Source: Patescibacteria group bacterium
GTDB lineage: Bacteria > Patescibacteriota > Patescibacteriia > UBA10025 > JBIOWE01
Direction: 5' to 3'
Length of the DNA stretch: 64,000 bases
NCBI GenBank assembly: GCA_044868145.1
Contig: JBIOWE010000006.1
Location: forward strand, 78,558-142,557
Part shown: positions 6,347 to 59,911 of the stretch, in pieces
How positions within the stretch are numbered: the first letter of the stretch is position 1
Layout of the letters: every line of letters starts with the position of its first letter
Made by a program: the position numbers and the translations under genes
Notes under the pieces: generated by a model
The model's input: only the letters and a program-made list of their open reading frames with translations
What the model was told of the DNA's origin: nothing
Database searches by the model: none

Positions 6347-6488
6347 TTTCACCATATTTTTGCACAACGTAAACCCAGCGCAGGCCGCTGTGCCTGCGAT
6401 GGGTTATGGCTTTCGTCTCCGCACCCACAGCGGGGTGCTCTGGTTTTTGCAGCCTTGTTTCAAAAATATATTATTGCTATAATGTAAG

Positions 6489-6510
6489 CATGAAACATTT
6501 GTTTCATGCT
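6489..6510. repeat. perfect 10-bp-arm palindrome GCATGAAACA..TGTTTCATGC
   Basis: Read directly from sequence; sits in a 290-bp intergenic region. Confidence 0.6.
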
Positions 6511-6533
6511 GTGGAAAACTTTGAATAACTGAA

Positions 6534-6557
6534 GGGGCGAATTTTCGCCTCTTTTTT
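6534..6557 (+). terminator. rho-independent terminator (GGCGA-loop-TCGCC plus T7)
   Basis: GC stem followed by CTCTTTTTTG. Confidence 0.5.
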
Positions 6558-6640
6558 GTTTATTGCTCGCAGAGATTGGAGGTGAGACCTACGTAATGCG
6601 CGCACATAAAGCTCATTAACATTTCATAAAGGAGGGATCA

Positions 6641-7072
6641 ATGCTGCAGGTGGCTGAAAAGAACGTTATTGACTTTAAGAAACTCGTGAGTGAGCCCTTG
6701 GGTAATGGATACCCACGTTTCTCCGTCAACGGTGTAGCCTATGCGTCTGAAGGAGAGAAAATGATTGCGCTTATGCTGCACGGGAATAACATTAAGTTTC
6801 GTCCAAACCCGTCGTTTAAGTTATCAGACGGTCACACATATATTCCAGACTTTGTTTTAAAATTTCCTTTCACGTGGCTGGGCCAAGACGATGATCGTTA
6901 TAAGACGTTCCGCGTTCTCGAAGCAAAAAACGGAATCATCCACCCTACAGATCTCATAAAAGCAAAACTTCTTGAGGAGGAATGGGGGTTGCCTGTCAAG
7001 TTGCTGCTGTATCGTGAGATTAAAAACCATCACAAACAAGGAGCTTTGCCTCTTGAGCTCATTTTCGACTGA
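6641..7072 (+). CDS. VRR-NUC / PD-(D/E)xK-fold nuclease domain protein
   Basis: 143 aa; motif ...YIPDFVL...(21 aa)...VLEAKNG = D ... ExK catalytic signature; RBS AAAGGAGGGATCA upstream. Confidence 0.5.
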   Translation: MLQVAEKNVIDFKKLVSEPLGNGYPRFSVNGVAYASEGEKMIALMLHGNNIKFRPNPSFKLSDGHTYIPDFVLKFPFTWLGQDDDRYKTFRVLEAKNGIIHPTDLIKAKLLEEEWGLPVKLLLYREIKNHHKQGALPLELIFD

Positions 7073-7138
7073 AAAATGCGACTCGCCCAAGATATTGGGC
7101 GAGTTTTGCTTTTTACTTTCGTGTGTTAAAATACATCC

Positions 7139-10100
7139 ATGAATATTTCCGAGAACCTGAATGACGCGCAAAAAAAGGCGGTCACGTTTGGCGAAGGACC
7201 GCTTTTGATTGTGGCCGGCGCCGGAACTGGAAAAACGACCGTGATCACCCAGCGTATCGCATGGCTCATCCTCGAAAAAAAACTGAAAACAGATTCCATC
7301 CTCGCGTTGACGTTCACGGATAAAGCCGCGGGCGAGATGGAGGAGCGCATTGACGTCGCGTTGCCGTACGGCTACGTTGATCTTTGGGTGTCGACGTTTC
7401 ACGCGTTTTGCGAGCGTATCTTAAAAGACAATGCATTGGAGATTGGCTTGCCGCCGGATTTCAAGCTCTTGAATCAAGTTGACCAAGCGCTACTCGTTCG
7501 GGAACAGTTTGACCGGTTCAACCTTGATTATTATCGGCCGCTCGGGAATCCGACAAAATTTATTCAAGCGCTCGTTAAACATTTCTCACGCGCAAAAGAT
7601 GAAAATATTTTACCGCAAGATTACCTTGAGTATGCAAAGAACGTGAAACTCGATCGCGACCAAGCGGAGTTTTTGAAGAAGAAGGAGGGCGAGCGCATCT
7701 CTGAAAAAGAACGCATACAAGAGGTCGCGGACGCGTATCACGTCTATCAGCAGCTTTTGTTGGAAAAAAGCAGCCTCGATTTCGGCGACCTGATTCTGTA
7801 TGCGATTAAATTGCTGAAGGAACGGCCAAACGTGCTGAAGCGATACCAGGAGCAATTCGCGTATATTCTCGTGGACGAGTTTCAAGACACCAATCATGCG
7901 CAATACGAGCTCATCAAGCTCCTGGCCGCGCCGAAGAATAACGTAACTGTGGTCGGTGATGACGACCAGTCAATCTACAAATTCCGCGGAGCCGCCATAT
8001 CGAACATTTTGGAGTTTAAAAAGGACTTTCCGAATTCGCAGGAGATCGTACTCACAGAAAATTATCGTTCGAAACAAAACATCCTTGATTTGGCGTACAA
8101 GTTCATTCAACTGAATAACCCAAACCGCCTTGAGTATCAATTGTCGCACGGGCACATTGATCCGAAGGGCCGCCCGCTGCAAACAAAAATTTCCAAACAG
8201 CTCCATTCCACAACGGGCGATGCGGGGTTGATCGAGCATATGCATTTTCGAGGCCACACGGAAGAGGCGTCGGGCGTAGTGAAGAAAATTCTCGATTTGA
8301 AGCGCGACGACCCCAAGCTCACGTGGTCCGATTTTTCGATTCTTGTTCGTGCGAACAGCTACGCGAGCGACTTTCTGGCGGTCTTGCGACGATACGACGT
8401 GCCGTATCACTTTCTCGCATCCTCAGGGCTCTACAGCCAGCCTGAGGTTATGGACATTATCGCTTATTTGAAGATGCTTGATAATTATCACGAGAGCGCA
8501 AGCTTATGGCGCGTATTGAATTTTCCTCATTGGCAATTACCGCATAAAGATCTTATTGAGTTTTCCCGATATGCGTCAAGGCGAAATGTTTCGCTGTATG
8601 ACGCGATGAAGATTGGAAGATCGTTGCAATCGGTTTCGCAGGAGACCTTGAAAAAAATTGACGACGTGCTTGGCATGATTGAAAAACATACGGCGTTCGC
8701 GAAGCAGAAAACCGTGGGGCAAGTCGGTTTGCAGTTCATGCAGGATTCTGGATATCTCCAACATTTAACTGAAAATCAGAACCAAGAGAATCTTGACAAA
8801 ATCATGCACCTCAACCAATTTTTTCGAAAAATCGAGCAGTTCGAGTCGAACCATGACGATAAGTCGGTGCACTCGTTCTTGAAGGAGTTCGAGATGATGC
8901 AGGAAGCCGGTGAGGAGGGCGCTTTATTGCCACCGTTTGAAGAGGGCCCAGACGCGGTGAAACTGATGACGCTGCATAGCGCAAAGGGGCTCGAATTTTC
9001 CTACGTGTTCCTCGTCAACTTAGTTGATAAACGATTCCCATCCGTGGAGCGCAAAGAGCCGATTGAGCTTCCGGAAGCGCTGATTAAGGAGATTATCCCC
9101 GAAGGCGATGTGCACCTGCAGGAAGAGCGGCGGTTATTTTACGTCGGCATGACACGAGCAAAACAGGCGCTTTTCTTCACATCCGCTGATGATTACGGAG
9201 GAACGCGCAAGAAGCGGCCGTCGCGTTTTCTTGTTGAATTAGGATTCCAGCGCAAGGAGGGAACAGAAGAGGTTGACTTCAGCGAGCGACTAAGGCAGCC
9301 AGAACAAATGAGCCGTCAGGAAGTGAGCTATGTGGAATTTTTGCGAAAATCAATTCCGGAAAAAGCGAGCTTCACGCAAATACGCGCATTTGAAACGTGC
9401 CCGAAGCAATATAAGTATGCGCATATTTTTAAGATTCCTGTGGAAGGACGGTTCACCTTCAGTTTTGGAAAGTCCGTTCACAATACGTTATTTCGGTTTT
9501 TTAAGCTCGTGAAAGAACGGGCCACGAATAATCAAGCCAGCCTTTTTTCGACTTCCAAAGCGCCAAAATCAACGCAGCCGATTGTAACCCTCGAGGAGCT
9601 GCTCGTCATCTATGAGAATGCGTGGATTCCCGATTGGTACGAATCAAGCAAGCATCAGGAGGAATATCAGCGAAAAGGCAAACAGCAGTTGCAGCAGTGG
9701 TACCTTGCGATGCAAGGAAAGTTTCCGGTGCCTGTTCATCTTGAAAAATCGTTCAACGTGAAAATAGGCGAGCGTCTTTTGAAAGGGGTGATTGATCGTA
9801 TTGATCCAGTGGGGGAGAACGGGGAGGTCGAGATTATTGACTACAAAACGGGCGCGGTTCCAAAAGGAGGCAAGCTTGAAGAAGACGACAAGCGACAACT
9901 GTTCATCTATGACTTGGCCGTCCGCGACGTACTTGGCTTGAAGCCCAAGAACCTCACCTACCACTACCTTGAAGGCAACCAGCTCTTATCATTTGCAAGC
10001 GATCCTGCTACACTAGAGGAGACGCGAGAATACCTAACGCAGACCGTTGAAGCCATTCACGGGAGCACGTTCGCCGCTACTCCTGGGTATTGGTGCAAGA

Positions 10101-10144
10101 CATGCGATTTCTATCAAATTTGTGAAGACCGATGGAAAGGATAA
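7139..10144 (+). CDS. UvrD/PcrA-family SF1 DNA helicase fused to C-terminal AddB/Cas4-like PD-(D/E)xK Fe-S nuclease domain
   Basis: Helicase motifs GAGTGKTTV (I), VDEFQDTN (II), ENYRS, YVGMTRAK (VI); C-terminus has CPKQYKY ... IDRID ... EIIDYKTG ... CKTCDFYQIC (Cys cluster plus nuclease motifs). Confidence 0.85.
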   Translation: MNISENLNDAQKKAVTFGEGPLLIVAGAGTGKTTVITQRIAWLILEKKLKTDSILALTFTDKAAGEMEERIDVALPYGYVDLWVSTFHAFCERILKDNALEIGLPPDFKLLNQVDQALLVREQFDRFNLDYYRPLGNPTKFIQALVKHFSRAKDENILPQDYLEYAKNVKLDRDQAEFLKKKEGERISEKERIQEVADAYHVYQQLLLEKSSLDFGDLILYAIKLLKERPNVLKRYQEQFAYILVDEFQDTNHAQYELIKLLAAPKNNVTVVGDDDQSIYKFRGAAISNILEFKKDFPNSQEIVLTENYRSKQNILDLAYKFIQLNNPNRLEYQLSHGHIDPKGRPLQTKISKQLHSTTGDAGLIEHMHFRGHTEEASGVVKKILDLKRDDPKLTWSDFSILVRANSYASDFLAVLRRYDVPYHFLASSGLYSQPEVMDIIAYLKMLDNYHESASLWRVLNFPHWQLPHKDLIEFSRYASRRNVSLYDAMKIGRSLQSVSQETLKKIDDVLGMIEKHTAFAKQKTVGQVGLQFMQDSGYLQHLTENQNQENLDKIMHLNQFFRKIEQFESNHDDKSVHSFLKEFEMMQEAGEEGALLPPFEEGPDAVKLMTLHSAKGLEFSYVFLVNLVDKRFPSVERKEPIELPEALIKEIIPEGDVHLQEERRLFYVGMTRAKQALFFTSADDYGGTRKKRPSRFLVELGFQRKEGTEEVDFSERLRQPEQMSRQEVSYVEFLRKSIPEKASFTQIRAFETCPKQYKYAHIFKIPVEGRFTFSFGKSVHNTLFRFFKLVKERATNNQASLFSTSKAPKSTQPIVTLEELLVIYENAWIPDWYESSKHQEEYQRKGKQQLQQWYLAMQGKFPVPVHLEKSFNVKIGERLLKGVIDRIDPVGENGEVEIIDYKTGAVPKGGKLEEDDKRQLFIYDLAVRDVLGLKPKNLTYHYLEGNQLLSFASDPATLEETREYLTQTVEAIHGSTFAATPGYWCKTCDFYQICEDRWKG

Positions 10145-10249: not shown

Positions 10250-10543
10250 ATGGCAACGCCGATCAAAGACATCTTGGACGATAACCTTGCGAAAGCGGGC
10301 ATTAAACAAAACGTGGAAGCCGCGATGATTTGCGACGCATTTCCTGATGTCGCCATTCAAGTGATTGGCGAGGGCGTGCGTAACAAAGTCAAGGCGCTTT
10401 ACGTGAAGAATAACACGCTCACCGTCGCGGTTATGAGCTCTGTCATTGGCCAAGAGCTCAAATTGCACGAACAAGAGATTCTTCAAAAGTTGAACCAAAA
10501 AGCTGGTAGAAAACTTGTTCAGAGTATTCGATTTTTTGTGTGA
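10250..10543 (+). CDS. DUF721-family small protein
   Basis: 97 aa; LYVKNNTLTVAVMSSVIGQELKLHEQEILQKLN resembles the DUF721 core (L.V....L.V.v.s...aqEL......ll.kln). Confidence 0.5.
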   Translation: MATPIKDILDDNLAKAGIKQNVEAAMICDAFPDVAIQVIGEGVRNKVKALYVKNNTLTVAVMSSVIGQELKLHEQEILQKLNQKAGRKLVQSIRFFV

Positions 10544-10648: not shown

Positions 10649-11047
10649 ATGTCGCTAAAAACATACCTGCTTTTCATGTCGATTCTCTCCCTGGTTTGTT
10701 GGATTGCCTGGATTTTTGTCTTGTCGTATCTCGATCCGGTTGAATCCGGCGCGCTTAGCCACGTGTTATTTTATCTCAGTTTATTCTTGGCGCTGATGGG
10801 CACGTTTTCCTTGCTCGGATTTTTTGGCCGTGTTTGGTTCTCAAAAGAAGAGGTGATCTTTCGACATCTCGGCGTGTCGTTCCGCCAAGCCATATTGTTC
10901 GCCCTTTTCTTGACGGGTTTGTTGATGTTGCAGGGTGTACGGTTTCTTCGGTGGTGGAACGTCCTGTTATTCATGATTCTACTCACGATAGCCGAATTTT
11001 TGTTCCTGTCGAAACGCCCGTATCGCCAATTGCCAAACGCATCATGA
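10649..11047 (+). CDS. hypothetical integral membrane protein (about 4 TM), translationally coupled to pheS
   Basis: Hydrophobic helices throughout; stop overlaps the pheS ATG (ATGA); alternative start at 10625. Confidence 0.5.
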   Translation: MSLKTYLLFMSILSLVCWIAWIFVLSYLDPVESGALSHVLFYLSLFLALMGTFSLLGFFGRVWFSKEEVIFRHLGVSFRQAILFALFLTGLLMLQGVRFLRWWNVLLFMILLTIAEFLFLSKRPYRQLPNAS

Positions 11048-17998: not shown

Positions 17999-18964
17999 AT
18001 GCTTAGTTTGCTTATCCCGTTTGGGATTCTCATTATTATTATCTTTGCCATCGTGGCAATGATAGAAGGTAAAACAACAATGAAAAAAGGACGGGTGATT
18101 CGCAGTCTGTATTTCTATTTGACGTCGCTCATTACGCTCGCTATCGTGGTGGGCTCGTTGATTTATCTTATTAACCTTGGCTTGAAGAGCTACGCGTTTA
18201 AGGATGCCGATGCGGGGCTTGATTATGCGGGCGCGCCGCCGACATTATTCTTGGACGCCACAACAACTCCGGAGGCAGCGAAGCCGGTTGGACCGATAGA
18301 TGCAAAACTTTCGTGCGAAAAGGATTGTACGCTTACGGAAACGCAAAAAACGGGTATCGAGAGTTGGAAAACTAACTATCAGCAATGGCAAAGGACCGCA
18401 GCCGATCCCAGCGCAAGGCGGACGCGAGATGCGGTTGCCGCGCTTTCGTTTTTTCTCGTGGCGCTTCCATTTTTCATTATTCATTTTCGCGTAGTGCAAA
18501 AGGATGCAAAACAGCAAGACGAGTCTGAACCAGGCGCGATGCGGCCAATGTATTTTTACTTCGTGGCGCTGGCATCGCTCGTGATGATCGTTGTCGCCGG
18601 CGGTTTTCTCATTAACGTCGGTTTGAAAACATGGGTGTTCCCGAAAGCCGGCCAAGTAGACCAACAGGTGGTACGGCCGTATATTGCTGAATCTGATGCG
18701 AATAAAACCGTTATGGCAAGCCTGGTTGATTGTGCGGATAAGTGCGGTATTGACGCCGAAACAAAAGCGCTCGCGCAGAAGTGGCAAACTGATTACGATT
18801 CGTGGCAGGCACGGGTTAATAAACCGACGAACACGAACCAGCGTCAGGCCGCGACCTCCATTCCGTATGTGTTCGTCGGCATACCGCTGTTTTGGTACCA
18901 CTGGACCGTAGCGCGTCGCGAATCAAAAGAACGCAAGCAATCTCCGCCGACGATGGCTACATAA
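17999..18964 (+). CDS. hypothetical membrane protein with internal tandem duplication (2 x [2 TM + Cys-pair + W..Q.W motif]) inserted between rplK and rplA
   Basis: Repeat 1 RSLYFYLTSLITLAIVVGSLIYLINLGLKSYAF...CEKDC...WKTNYQQWQ; repeat 2 RPMYFYFVALASLVMIVVAGGFLINVGLKTWVF...CADKCG...WQTDYDSWQ. Confidence 0.6.
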   Translation: MLSLLIPFGILIIIIFAIVAMIEGKTTMKKGRVIRSLYFYLTSLITLAIVVGSLIYLINLGLKSYAFKDADAGLDYAGAPPTLFLDATTTPEAAKPVGPIDAKLSCEKDCTLTETQKTGIESWKTNYQQWQRTAADPSARRTRDAVAALSFFLVALPFFIIHFRVVQKDAKQQDESEPGAMRPMYFYFVALASLVMIVVAGGFLINVGLKTWVFPKAGQVDQQVVRPYIAESDANKTVMASLVDCADKCGIDAETKALAQKWQTDYDSWQARVNKPTNTNQRQAATSIPYVFVGIPLFWYHWTVARRESKERKQSPPTMAT

Positions 18965-20453: not shown

Positions 20454-22055
20454 ATGGCTGACGACAAACGAGACATCTTTGCAATCGTAGGATTACCACC
20501 CGAGGTACTCGCGGTCGCCATGGCGAAGTATTCCCGTTCTGCGAAATCCATCAAGGAAACGATTGATGAGTTGACCGAGGAAAAATCCGCAGAGTTTCAC
20601 GAAAAGTGGGTGTTGGGATACGGCGATGCGTCCGTCGCTGATATGGCAATTGTTGCGCTCGCGCTGGAGAATGTTTCCATTCTCGCGAGCAAAGTGATCG
20701 AAGACAACCGAATAGCCGCGTATCAAGAAAAATCCACGCGCTACCAGTCATTCGCGCTTGAAGATAAAGAATTATCAGCTCACTTGCTTGAGCGCAAAGA
20801 AACCGGAGAAGCATTCGCTCGAAAAAGGTACTTCAAGCCCCGGGCAATCATGGCGTCCGGCCAAGCGGCTTTGTTCACGCAAACGGCCGACTTTTTGTTT
20901 GAGCAATACACGGAGATAACAAAGAAGATGATGGAGTATTATTCGCGGAAGTACCCCAAGCCTGCGGACATGACGGATAAGGCCTACGCCGCAAAAGTGC
21001 GGGCACGCTCGCTCGACGTGGCCAGATATTTGTTGCCGGCGGCGACGTTGACGAATTTCGGCATGATCATCAATGCGCGCTCGCTCCGTCATGCGATTTC
21101 CAAAATGATGGGACATCAGCTGGAAGAATTACACGAGATCGGGGCGGAAATGCGGGAAGCCGCCATCAACCCGGCATACAATCCGCAGTCGAAAAAGATC
21201 GAGCAATTACTTGCCCAACTGCGTGCGCTCGGAGGAAAAACGCAGGAGTTAGCCGACCAAGTTCAACAATCCATTTCCCTCCAAGTGAAAGGAGCGCCGA
21301 CGCTTATCAAACATACGGACCCCAAAGAGTATTTAACAAAAACAAGCACGAAACTTGCGGCGATCGCCTCGGAATTACTGAAAGACGTGGTTCCGGAAGC
21401 GGGGGAGCGCGCGTCCTATCTGGGGGTGGATGAAACGTACGAAGACGAGCTGATCATCACCCTTCTTTACGGCGTATCTCATTGCGCGTATCGTCAGATT
21501 GCCGACGTCGTGAGGCGATTGCAAGAAGCGAAGAAAAAAGAAATTATTAAAATCGCAACAGCGCATCGCAGCCAGTGGGATTGGCCGACGCGCCACTTTG
21601 AAACCGGTCGTCAATTCACCTTTGACACGCTTATGGACTATGGCGCGTTTCGGGACCTCCAGCGCCATCGGCTCACGACGCAGATCAACCAAGAGCTGGG
21701 AGTTGAGCATGGCTATGAATTGCCGCTTGGCCTTGGCATTGACGAAGCGGGACTCACTGCACAAATGTCGCAAGCGCTTGAACGCGTGAAAGAAGTATAC
21801 CTCGAGCTGAAATACTCATTCCCGAACGAAGCGCAATACATTATCCCGCTCGGGTTTCGGAAGCGTACGCTTTTTAAAATGAATCTTCGCGAGCTCACGC
21901 ATATCGTGGAACTGCGGACAAAAGCGGGAGGTCACCTATCGTACCGCGACCTGTGCTATGAAATGTATGCAAAAGTATCCAAGCGGCACCCACTGCTCAC
22001 CATGCACATACGCGCCGTGAAGCCGGATTTCCCTAAGGAATTTTTTGAACGCTAG
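20454..22055 (+). CDS. thyX: FAD-dependent thymidylate synthase ThyX-like, fused two-domain (533 aa)
   Basis: Degenerate ThyX motifs in each half (YSRS...STRYQS in the N-half; QRHRLTTQ in the C-half); immediately followed by tmk. Confidence 0.6.
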   Translation: MADDKRDIFAIVGLPPEVLAVAMAKYSRSAKSIKETIDELTEEKSAEFHEKWVLGYGDASVADMAIVALALENVSILASKVIEDNRIAAYQEKSTRYQSFALEDKELSAHLLERKETGEAFARKRYFKPRAIMASGQAALFTQTADFLFEQYTEITKKMMEYYSRKYPKPADMTDKAYAAKVRARSLDVARYLLPAATLTNFGMIINARSLRHAISKMMGHQLEELHEIGAEMREAAINPAYNPQSKKIEQLLAQLRALGGKTQELADQVQQSISLQVKGAPTLIKHTDPKEYLTKTSTKLAAIASELLKDVVPEAGERASYLGVDETYEDELIITLLYGVSHCAYRQIADVVRRLQEAKKKEIIKIATAHRSQWDWPTRHFETGRQFTFDTLMDYGAFRDLQRHRLTTQINQELGVEHGYELPLGLGIDEAGLTAQMSQALERVKEVYLELKYSFPNEAQYIIPLGFRKRTLFKMNLRELTHIVELRTKAGGHLSYRDLCYEMYAKVSKRHPLLTMHIRAVKPDFPKEFFER

Positions 22056-59766: not shown

Positions 59767-59837
59767 GCGGGTGTAGTATAGCGGCAGTACGCTTGCTTCC
59801 CAAGCAAGAAGAGGCGGTTCGACTCCGCTCATCCGCT
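59767..59837 (+). tRNA. tRNA-Gly (anticodon CCC)
   Basis: Acceptor GCGGGTG/CATCCGC (one G-U), anticodon stem CTTGC/GCAAG, loop ttCCCaa, T-arm GGCGG-TTCGACT-CCGCT, discriminator U. Confidence 0.8.
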
Positions 59838-59862
59838 CGGGCGAAGGCAGGCGGGGAACCGG

Positions 59863-59911
59863 CGCAACAACCTTGGGAAGGTTGTGTACTACCACTATAC
59901 GAATCCCGCAA
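59863..59911 (-). pseudogene. inverted partial tRNA-Gly(CCC)-like copy (5' half intact, 3' half degenerate)
   Basis: Reverse complement GCGGGATTCGTATAGTGGTAGTACACAACCTTCCCAAGGTTG has acceptor, D-arm and CCC anticodon arm but no valid T-arm/acceptor 3' strand. Confidence 0.4.

Follow-up and report, generated by a model that had tools for sequence, protein, structure and literature searches.

When a gene for a small nuclease lies directly upstream of a gene for a helicase fused to a nuclease, are we looking at the parts of one machine, at a defence locus, or at two neighbours that work separately? We are interested in this question for a stretch of 64,000 nucleotides from a Patescibacteria group bacterium (assembly GCA_044868145.1, contig JBIOWE010000006.1, positions 78,558-142,557), which as a whole we call the window, and in which a gene for a predicted nuclease of 143 amino acids (aa) precedes a gene for a 1001-aa helicase-nuclease. 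What we observe here are domain content, catalytic-residue conservation, synteny, terminators and distribution, and we think it rather probable that these are two separately transcribed DNA-metabolism genes, which constitute neither a dedicated two-gene system nor a defence locus. The features on which the argument turns are the following, in window coordinates:

6641..7072, plus strand: small PD-(D/E)xK nuclease (predicted), 143 aa; open reading frame (ORF), translation, family alignments and AlphaFold2 (AF2) model
7080..7105, no strand assigned: intrinsic terminator hairpin in the gap between the two genes, with an 11-bp stem and a T-run on either strand
7139..10144, plus strand: helicase-nuclease, 1001 aa; Pfam, NCBIfam and PDB sequence search
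7157..9187, plus strand: superfamily 1A (SF1A) UvrD/PcrA-type motor, aa 7-683; Pfam
9365..10126, plus strand: PDDEXK_1 Cas4/AddB-like four-cysteine nuclease, aa 743-996; Pfam

Both reading frames had been described in an earlier note on this DNA, and the translations agree with it: the 143-aa product (6641-7072) contains IPDFVL and LEAKNG, and the 1001-aa product (7139-10144) contains CPKQYKY, EIIDYKTG and CKTCDFYQIC.

Judged by its sequence, the 1001-aa protein combines a complete SF1 helicase of the UvrD/PcrA type with a Cas4/AddB-like four-cysteine nuclease at its C-terminus, and the Pfam domain search thereby bears out the earlier domain reading. UvrD-helicase (PF00580) matches aa 7-298 with E 2e-83 and 280 bits, UvrD_C (PF13361) matches aa 303-683 with E 2e-55 and 189 bits, and PDDEXK_1 (PF12705) matches aa 743-996 with E 1e-30 and 107.7 bits, each above its gathering cut-off (23, 25.6 and 22 bits, respectively); the Cas4 model PF01930 scores 22.5 bits against a cut-off of 22.7, that is, at threshold. 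The SF1 motifs are complete in the translation (GAGTGKT, DEFQD, GDDDQSIY, NYRS, LHSAKGLEF, YVGMTRAK). In the nuclease domain, the motifs C(P/A)xQ[YF]K[FY], IDR[IV]D, E[IVL]xDYKTG, Q-x3-Y and CxxCDFxxICE are kept in 11 aligned homologues, and across the same 11 the four cysteines are invariant (the one in TCPKQYKY and the three of CKTCDFYQIC, giving C...CxxCx5C). AddB, Cas4 and Dna2 are known for this arrangement of one cysteine and a later CxxCx5C, and by analogy with those families the module could hold an iron-sulphur cluster.

The protein resembles several well-known enzymes without belonging fully to any one of them. Its top NCBIfam match is PcrA (TIGR01073), with 520.5 bits over model positions 3-639 of 725, which falls short of the equivalog cut-off of 911 bits. 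Nor does it reach equivalog status as AddA, RecB or AddB, with 233 bits for addA_Gpos (cut-off 708), 179 for recB (696) and 42 for addB_alphas (487), or the cut-off for CRISPR Cas4 (TIGR00372; 35.2 versus 65 bits). In a sequence search of the PDB, the closest solved structure to the motor is PcrA 1pjr (1.5e-99 over residues 5-702), and the closest to the nuclease core is the nuclease domain of AdnB (2.5e-5). The motor thus has its best sequence match in PcrA/UvrD (1pjr, 2is1), with all helicase motifs common to both, whereas the C-terminal region of PcrA is replaced here by a nuclease domain of about 260 aa. With AddAB, AdnAB and RecBCD it shares a UvrD-like motor joined to a RecB-family nuclease whose core aligns with AdnB, but it consists of one polypeptide chain, no other large subunit is encoded close by, and we find no evidence of Chi recognition for it. 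Its neighbours in the window are the 143-aa protein, DciA, a membrane protein and PheS, so that no AddB or RecC/RecD-type large subunit is adjacent, and a second large subunit of the AddAB/RecBCD type is adjacent in none of the related loci with listed gene calls. A literature search returned nothing specific on a characterised helicase-nuclease, or on the recombination inventory, of the candidate phyla radiation (CPR), and to our knowledge the Patescibacteria helicase-nuclease has never been studied biochemically.

Is this protein an accessory of a few genomes, or part of the core equipment of the group? More than 8000 homologues were scored, and our description rests on the best 120 of them. 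Nearly all of these are about 1000 aa long with the same three-domain architecture, and the organism names that are given all read Patescibacteria group bacterium, a named lineage of the CPR, or unclassified bacterium. Assemblies of NC10, Rokubacteria, Armatimonadetes, Chloroflexi and Acidobacteria contain full-length relatives too, at 34-39% identity. Starting from the helicase, we recovered 81 loci (related loci are cited below by their numbers, L001 and so on), in which the gene order is atpD, atpC, (Pro_CA_2), a variable position, helicase-nuclease, (DciA), a protein of about 130 aa, PheS, PheT and GyrB. This block from atpD to GyrB is kept down to about 44% helicase identity. In the window, the two genes that follow the helicase-nuclease are

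10250..10543, plus strand: DciA, replicative-helicase loader; Pfam PF05258 (1.9e-12) and synteny
10649..11047, plus strand: conserved hydrophobic, probably membrane-spanning protein of about 130 aa; alignment of 9 orthologues and synteny

Several close homologues of the helicase-nuclease are longer than the rest, at 1343-1385 aa (P0004, P0024, P0026, P0050, P0061, P0081), and contain domains of the Hint (PF01079) and intein-splicing (PF14890) kinds. By these domain matches, inteins have invaded the gene in some Patescibacteria. Core proteins of replication and repair are typical targets of inteins.

The protein of about 130 aa has four hydrophobic segments and belongs to no Pfam family, as seen in the 9 aligned orthologues. 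At most loci in Patescibacteria it comes after the helicase-nuclease and DciA (orthologues in L001-L119), and it accompanies the helicase more steadily than the small nuclease does. We considered it as the true protein partner of the helicase and rejected it, as it is hydrophobic, probably spans the membrane and is no nuclease.

The rest of the window has the same character as the block. Its genes include those for the ATP synthase b, delta, alpha, gamma, beta and epsilon subunits and a putative carbonic anhydrase; for DciA, PheS/PheT, GyrB, NusG, L11, L1, ThyX, Tmk, sigma-70, GatB, CarAB and MiaA; and for ThrRS, DnaE, FtsW, L25, RF1, PrmC, S2, EF-Ts and tRNAs. Apart from the pair under study, the annotated genes all serve housekeeping or ordinary cellular functions, a few small ORFs being without assignment; PADLOC gave no match for the ten unassigned window ORFs that were submitted to it. 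Among the annotated ORFs of the 64-kb window there are no restriction-modification, methyltransferase or abortive-infection genes, and type III restriction-modification or Dcm/Vsr genes are absent both from these ORFs and from the syntenic loci of relatives. No annotated window ORF matches a Cas protein family, a statement about proteins only, as CRISPR arrays were not scanned for.

The earlier note had proposed that conserved synteny in distant relatives, free of accessory genes, would speak for housekeeping, and had likened the locus to Gabija- or Nhi-like defence systems as an alternative. Since synteny is conserved in distant relatives and no defence genes lie nearby, housekeeping is favoured over defence, and the Gabija- or Nhi-like reading is not sustained. 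Thus, the 1001-aa protein is most likely, on its sequence and context, the group's standard PcrA/UvrD-type housekeeping helicase and no part of a defence system. The architecture is known and widely annotated, and what we add, modestly, is that its placement in Patescibacteria is a housekeeping one almost throughout.

We turn to the 143-aa protein, for which no Pfam or NCBIfam model gave a match. The earlier note had called it a VRR-NUC nuclease. It does resemble VRR-NUC (PF08774), likewise a small PD-(D/E)xK domain that stands alone and has about this length, but the PF08774 model matches no member of the family at E<=1, neither the protein itself nor its relatives (13 family members scanned). 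Solved VRR-NUC structures are weak fold matches (4qbo E 0.32, 4qbl E 0.50, 4qbn E 1.5) and rank below DrdV, R2 RLE, Bax1, Cas4 and AbaSI in the fold search. With the model unmatched and the VRR-NUC folds only at E 0.3-1.5, the VRR-NUC label is not supported.

Relatives of the protein are few. A word-indexed search of 5.8 billion proteins returned only the protein itself, while an exhaustive phmmer search over 1.84 billion representatives returned true relatives, about a dozen in number, with lengths of 130-174 aa and identities of 27-41%; among the phmmer matches, the large proteins P0122, P0124 and P0125 were rejected as repeat-protein artefacts (TPR, cadherin-like). A subsequent profile search enlarged the family to 32 clusters, none of which has a functional name and two of which carry organism names, both Patescibacteria. 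Every 90% cluster in the family holds 1-3 members. The phage, plasmid and IMG/VR collections yielded no homologue. Because no profile hidden Markov model (HMM) matches and the VRR-NUC folds rank low, the protein is placed outside VRR-NUC and, by sequence comparison, founds a new small and rare PD-(D/E)xK family, which to go by its named members is confined to Patescibacteria.

The predicted catalytic tetrad of this family, E39, D70, E94 and K96 (E-D-ExK), is invariant in an alignment of 13 and then of 38 sequences, and it agrees with the superfamily's pattern of E in helix 1, D in strand 2 and ExK in strand 3. A confident AF2 model built on the alignment (predicted local distance difference test 88.8, predicted template modelling score 0.84) has the alpha-beta-beta-beta-alpha-beta core of restriction endonucleases, composed of helix 37-48, strands 53-55, 71-79 and 89-96, helix 102-115 and strand 119-123; the protein has no additional DNA-binding domain. 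When the model is compared with the PDB by Foldseek, the matches are weak (E >= 0.015), and the top two dozen are nearly all PD-(D/E)xK nucleases, including DrdV, R2 RLE, Bax1, Cas4, AbaSI, VRR-NUC, I-Bth0305I and T7 endonuclease I. Matches are better among the predicted viral structures of BFVD (E 1e-5 to 1e-3, template modelling (TM) score about 0.5), whose labels read endonuclease, endodeoxyribonuclease I, Holliday junction resolvase, DUF1064, TnsA-N and Vsr; those labelled endodeoxyribonuclease I, Holliday junction resolvase and DUF1064 lie at E 1e-5 to 3e-4. A PDB profile search gave T7 endonuclease I as its sole nuclease, over the L..GI.F...PDF region and at a value that is not significant (E=0.81), and the PHROG family 'Holliday junction resolvase' matches one family member at 0.0018.

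T7 endonuclease I, Hjc and the phage DUF1064 proteins share with the 143-aa protein its size, the E...PD...ExK tetrad and the alpha-beta-beta-beta-alpha-beta core, but no Pfam, PHROG or PDB sequence match is significant, the Pfam scan brought up none of these families at E<=1, and the TM score is only about 0.5. By its conserved residues and its predicted fold, the protein is a real and probably active member of the PD-(D/E)xK superfamily, and its model is most like the phage endonuclease I and junction-resolvase types.

In four lineages the small nuclease occurs as a tandem pair of paralogues (L094 4400-5477; L098 7394-8495; L100 5431-6567; L118 3019-4008), and both copies of each pair keep the catalytic residues. 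Such pairs hint at heterodimers.

Do the two genes form one transcription unit? The gap between them is 66 bp long and contains a strong bidirectional intrinsic terminator at 7080-7105, which the earlier reader had overlooked, and a -10-like TAAAAT stands directly ahead of the helicase start codon. The small gene has a strong Shine-Dalgarno sequence of its own, AAAGGAGGG, and its 3' region closes in a GC hairpin with a T-run in all seven of the seven cases that were folded (the window, L087, L089, L092, L094, L096 and L004). Because the terminator sits in the 66-bp gap, the two genes, to judge from the DNA sequence, are adjacent but probably not co-transcribed.

The DNA upstream of the small gene carries signals as well, which we list as one feature:

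6446..6554, plus strand: upstream intergenic elements (promoter-like site, inverted repeat, terminator-like hairpin)

This region, 6347-6640, measures 294 bp and has terminator-like hairpins at 6421-6438 and 6531-6554, in agreement with the earlier description of a region of about 290 bp with a terminator; the palindrome reported there stands in need of correction, its arms being 11 nt long and not 10. It is a perfect inverted repeat, 6487-6497/6500-6510, of the form AGCATGAAACA tt TGTTTCATGCT, which is preceded by the promoter-like site at 6446-6474 and followed by the hairpin at 6531-6554. These elements may represent a tiny transcription unit or RNA gene, or else an operator. A search of Rfam with the 6446-6554 region gave nothing significant (sraA, E=0.86). 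A shared SOS-type operator was considered for the palindrome and rejected: the window has one exact GAAACN4GTTTC site, and with at most one mismatch there are 5 sites versus 4.2 expected, so that the motif is not enriched.

How closely, then, is the small nuclease tied to the helicase? Among the helicase-derived loci, 59 have at least 2 kb of upstream flank, and the small gene is present in none of these 59, including 38 loci at >=44% identity and the four closest relatives (L001, L002, L007, L009; 64-73% helicase identity). Therefore, the helicase works without the small nuclease. In loci that lack it, unrelated genes fill the slot upstream of the helicase; unannotated ORFs at this position in L001, L002, L007 and L009 were examined as possible divergent family members and rejected by HMM search. 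The idea of compensation, whereby the helicase's own nuclease would be degenerate beside the small one, was likewise rejected, as the motifs are intact in 11 of 11 aligned proteins. A convergent gene for a receiver-only response regulator often lies between the small gene and the helicase (L096 5540-5926 and L098 8609-8980, both on the minus strand; also L104, L106, L108, L110 and L118), and the window has no such gene at this position.

In the closest GTDB relative, a 112-aa ORF upstream of the helicase (L007 5142-5480) contains a stretch, FPDLVVW...IIEEVET, that resembles another PD-(D/E)xK-like signature; this ORF has no Pfam match and lies outside the 143-aa family.

The contexts gathered from members of the small nuclease family, which provide 17 informative loci, weigh against a reading of the two genes as mere neighbours. 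In about 15 of the 17, the small gene lies 0.1-1.7 kb upstream of the helicase and on the same strand: immediately upstream of the UvrD+PDDEXK_1 helicase in the window, L087, L089, L094 and L115, and one or two genes upstream in L092, L096, L098, L104, L106, L108, L112, L113/L117, L118 and L119. The exceptions are two divergent subfamilies, one near RuvA and a tRNA (L004-6) and the other near RmuC, Tag and DnaG (L100/101). The linkage moreover persists where the far-upstream flank has changed, that flank being mostly the ATP-synthase block, AtpI in L089 and TrmB-CofD-HAD in L098. Linkage that is independent of the flank is not what pure chance synteny predicts, and it could reflect functional coupling. 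The identities of the small proteins co-vary with those of the neighbouring helicases as well (Mantel test on pairwise identities at 13 loci, r=0.65, p=0.0004), and this co-divergence implies long vertical co-inheritance and not recent mobility. By these comparisons the small nuclease is most likely an optional neighbour of the helicase that is vertically inherited.

It is important to weigh these facts against the explanations that would make more, or less, of the association. The earlier note had suggested a miniature AddAB, in which the small nuclease is a dedicated partner that supplies a second nuclease, so that one motor and two nucleases resect both strands as in AddAB or AdnAB. We regard this as unlikely, although it has in its favour the position of the small gene just upstream of the helicase and on its strand, the survival of that linkage through rearrangement of the far-upstream flank, the co-divergence of both proteins, and the invariant predicted catalytic residues, which suggest an active enzyme under selection; Bax1, a nuclease partnered with a helicase, is also among the fold neighbours. 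It does not account for the absence of the small gene from all 59 other helicase loci, the closest relatives included, nor for its own terminator between both genes, the convergent gene that often intervenes and the two subfamilies located elsewhere in the genome, and the nuclease motifs of the helicase itself stay intact whether the neighbour is there or not, with no sign of compensation. Of the earlier phrase 'helicase-nuclease plus accessory nuclease', then, the upstream position holds in about 15 of 17 loci, and what fails is the general pairing, given the other helicase loci, the terminator and the oppositely oriented gene between. A narrower version, to which we would give only tentative credence, confines the partnership to a subset of Patescibacteria, in which the small nuclease (sometimes in tandem, suggesting a heterodimer) and the helicase-nuclease might together make a minimal machine of one motor and two nucleases for double-strand-break resection or fork processing, functionally analogous to AddAB and AdnAB and put together from a housekeeping helicase and an addition of 15 kDa. 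Quite improbable, in our judgement, is that the small gene is a selfish, free-standing gene of the homing-endonuclease kind, which inserts beside a conserved essential gene and cleaves alleles without itself. Its patchiness among helicase loci, its monocistronic arrangement with its own ribosome-binding site and terminator, fold neighbours that include free-standing phage endonucleases and the homing endonuclease I-Bth0305I, and a relative that adjoins a small GIY-YIG gene present in only some variants would all suit such an element. Against it, no near-identical copies are found across genomes (the 90% clusters holding so few members), the divergence tracks that of the host helicase and so indicates long vertical descent, there is no additional DNA-binding domain and no phage, plasmid or viral-contig homologue was found, and the tandem paralogue pairs resemble duplication and not invasion.

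It could also be supposed that the small protein is an orphan restriction-type or toxin nuclease, tied to the helicase by inherited gene order alone. Its restriction-endonuclease fold, the label 'restriction enzyme' on some BFVD neighbours and its separate transcription unit are compatible with this, but no methyltransferase or antitoxin-like gene is adjacent in the window or in related loci with listed gene calls, a restriction enzyme without protection would be lethal, and the position beside the helicase persists despite flank rearrangements; we consider it very improbable. In L100/L101, a helix-turn-helix and Gp49-type pair lies just downstream of the family member. Lastly, the helicase and nuclease might be an anti-phage defence pair akin to Gabija or Nhi, or to the defence-linked UvrD-Cas4 fusions, which seems to us very improbable as well. 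UvrD-Cas4-like fusions are the largest branch of pfam12705, and they were tied to defence by Hudaiberdiev et al. 2017 (PMC5704561), who found them in type III restriction-modification or Dcm-Vsr loci and proposed a defence role. They have the architecture seen here, an N-terminal UvrD-like SF1 3'-5' helicase with a C-terminal PF12705 Cas4-like nuclease with cysteines, but our comparison is one of architecture and not of clade, and in many Patescibacteria the gene lies in a housekeeping block of ATP synthase, DciA, PheST and GyrB. Gabija likewise sets a UvrD-like helicase gene beside a nuclease gene, and the PADLOC models GajB and RTasHel match the 1001-aa protein strongly (1e-100); these matches reflect generic UvrD similarity, however, and PcrA scores higher. 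GajB has no fused nuclease, and its context differs from the housekeeping context here, while GajA is a large ATPase with a TOPRIM (OLD-family) nuclease, in contrast to the 143-aa PD-(D/E)xK protein; no GajA-like partner stands beside the helicase, and the 143-aa protein has no PADLOC match to GajA, its weak PADLOC match being to a PD-DExK model (1.5e-4). The absence of restriction-modification, methyltransferase and abortive-infection genes noted above and the conserved housekeeping block in dozens of genomes also speak against defence, and the near-universal presence of the helicase-nuclease in the group, with inteins in some copies, is the habit of core replication and repair genes and not of patchy defence genes.

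Between near-identical contigs, small GIY-YIG genes (T5orf172-type) come and go: one is present at L006 5543-5794 and absent from the near-identical L004 and L005, and another lies at L002 9084-9365. They adjoin a small nuclease relative in L006 and the helicase gene in L002, which suggests that they are mobile mini-endonuclease genes in these genomes.

Under the reading that we favour, that of two separately transcribed genes, the following picture emerges. By analogy with PcrA/UvrD, AddAB and AdnAB, the motor would translocate 3'->5' on single-stranded DNA and unwind duplex from ends, nicks or stalled forks, and the tethered RecB-family nuclease would cut a strand that emerges from the motor. 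A single chain would thus merge an active motor of the AddA kind and a nuclease of the AddB/Cas4 kind, so as to process ends or forks in a reduced genome. The 143-aa protein would act as a minimal, dimeric, structure-specific DNA endonuclease, which a minority of lineages has passed down vertically at the variable position ahead of the helicase gene and the others have lost. Polarity, strand cut and the presence of an iron-sulphur cluster are what we infer from the families; substrate, dimerisation and any cooperation of both proteins are likewise inferred.

Elsewhere in the window, a 321-aa DUF5671 protein (17999-18964) is encoded between the L11 and L1 genes and splits the usually contiguous rplK-rplA pair. 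ThyX (20454-22055) has 533 aa and two Thy1 stretches, and looks as if a flavin-dependent thymidylate synthase had been duplicated or fused. ARAGORN places abutting tRNA-Gly(ccc) genes on opposite strands, 59767-59838 (plus) and 59839-59910 (minus), of which Rfam confirms the plus-strand one only; a mechanically called 580-aa ORF from 59727 overlaps these calls, and its real start must therefore lie further downstream.

Neither the finding on the helicase-nuclease nor that on the small nuclease overturns current understanding, and their practical value is that the defence-system and VRR-NUC readings are removed. In a huge radiation of uncultivated bacteria with tiny genomes, the helicase-nuclease seems to serve as the standard enzyme of the UvrD family. 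With the small nuclease, the PD-(D/E)xK superfamily gains a family of 32 clusters that had not been described, and the unusually faithful position of this nuclease beside the helicase makes cooperation between the two a hypothesis that is cheap to test. If the helicase-nuclease should be the sole end-processing enzyme of these bacteria, it would show how far recombinational repair can shrink.

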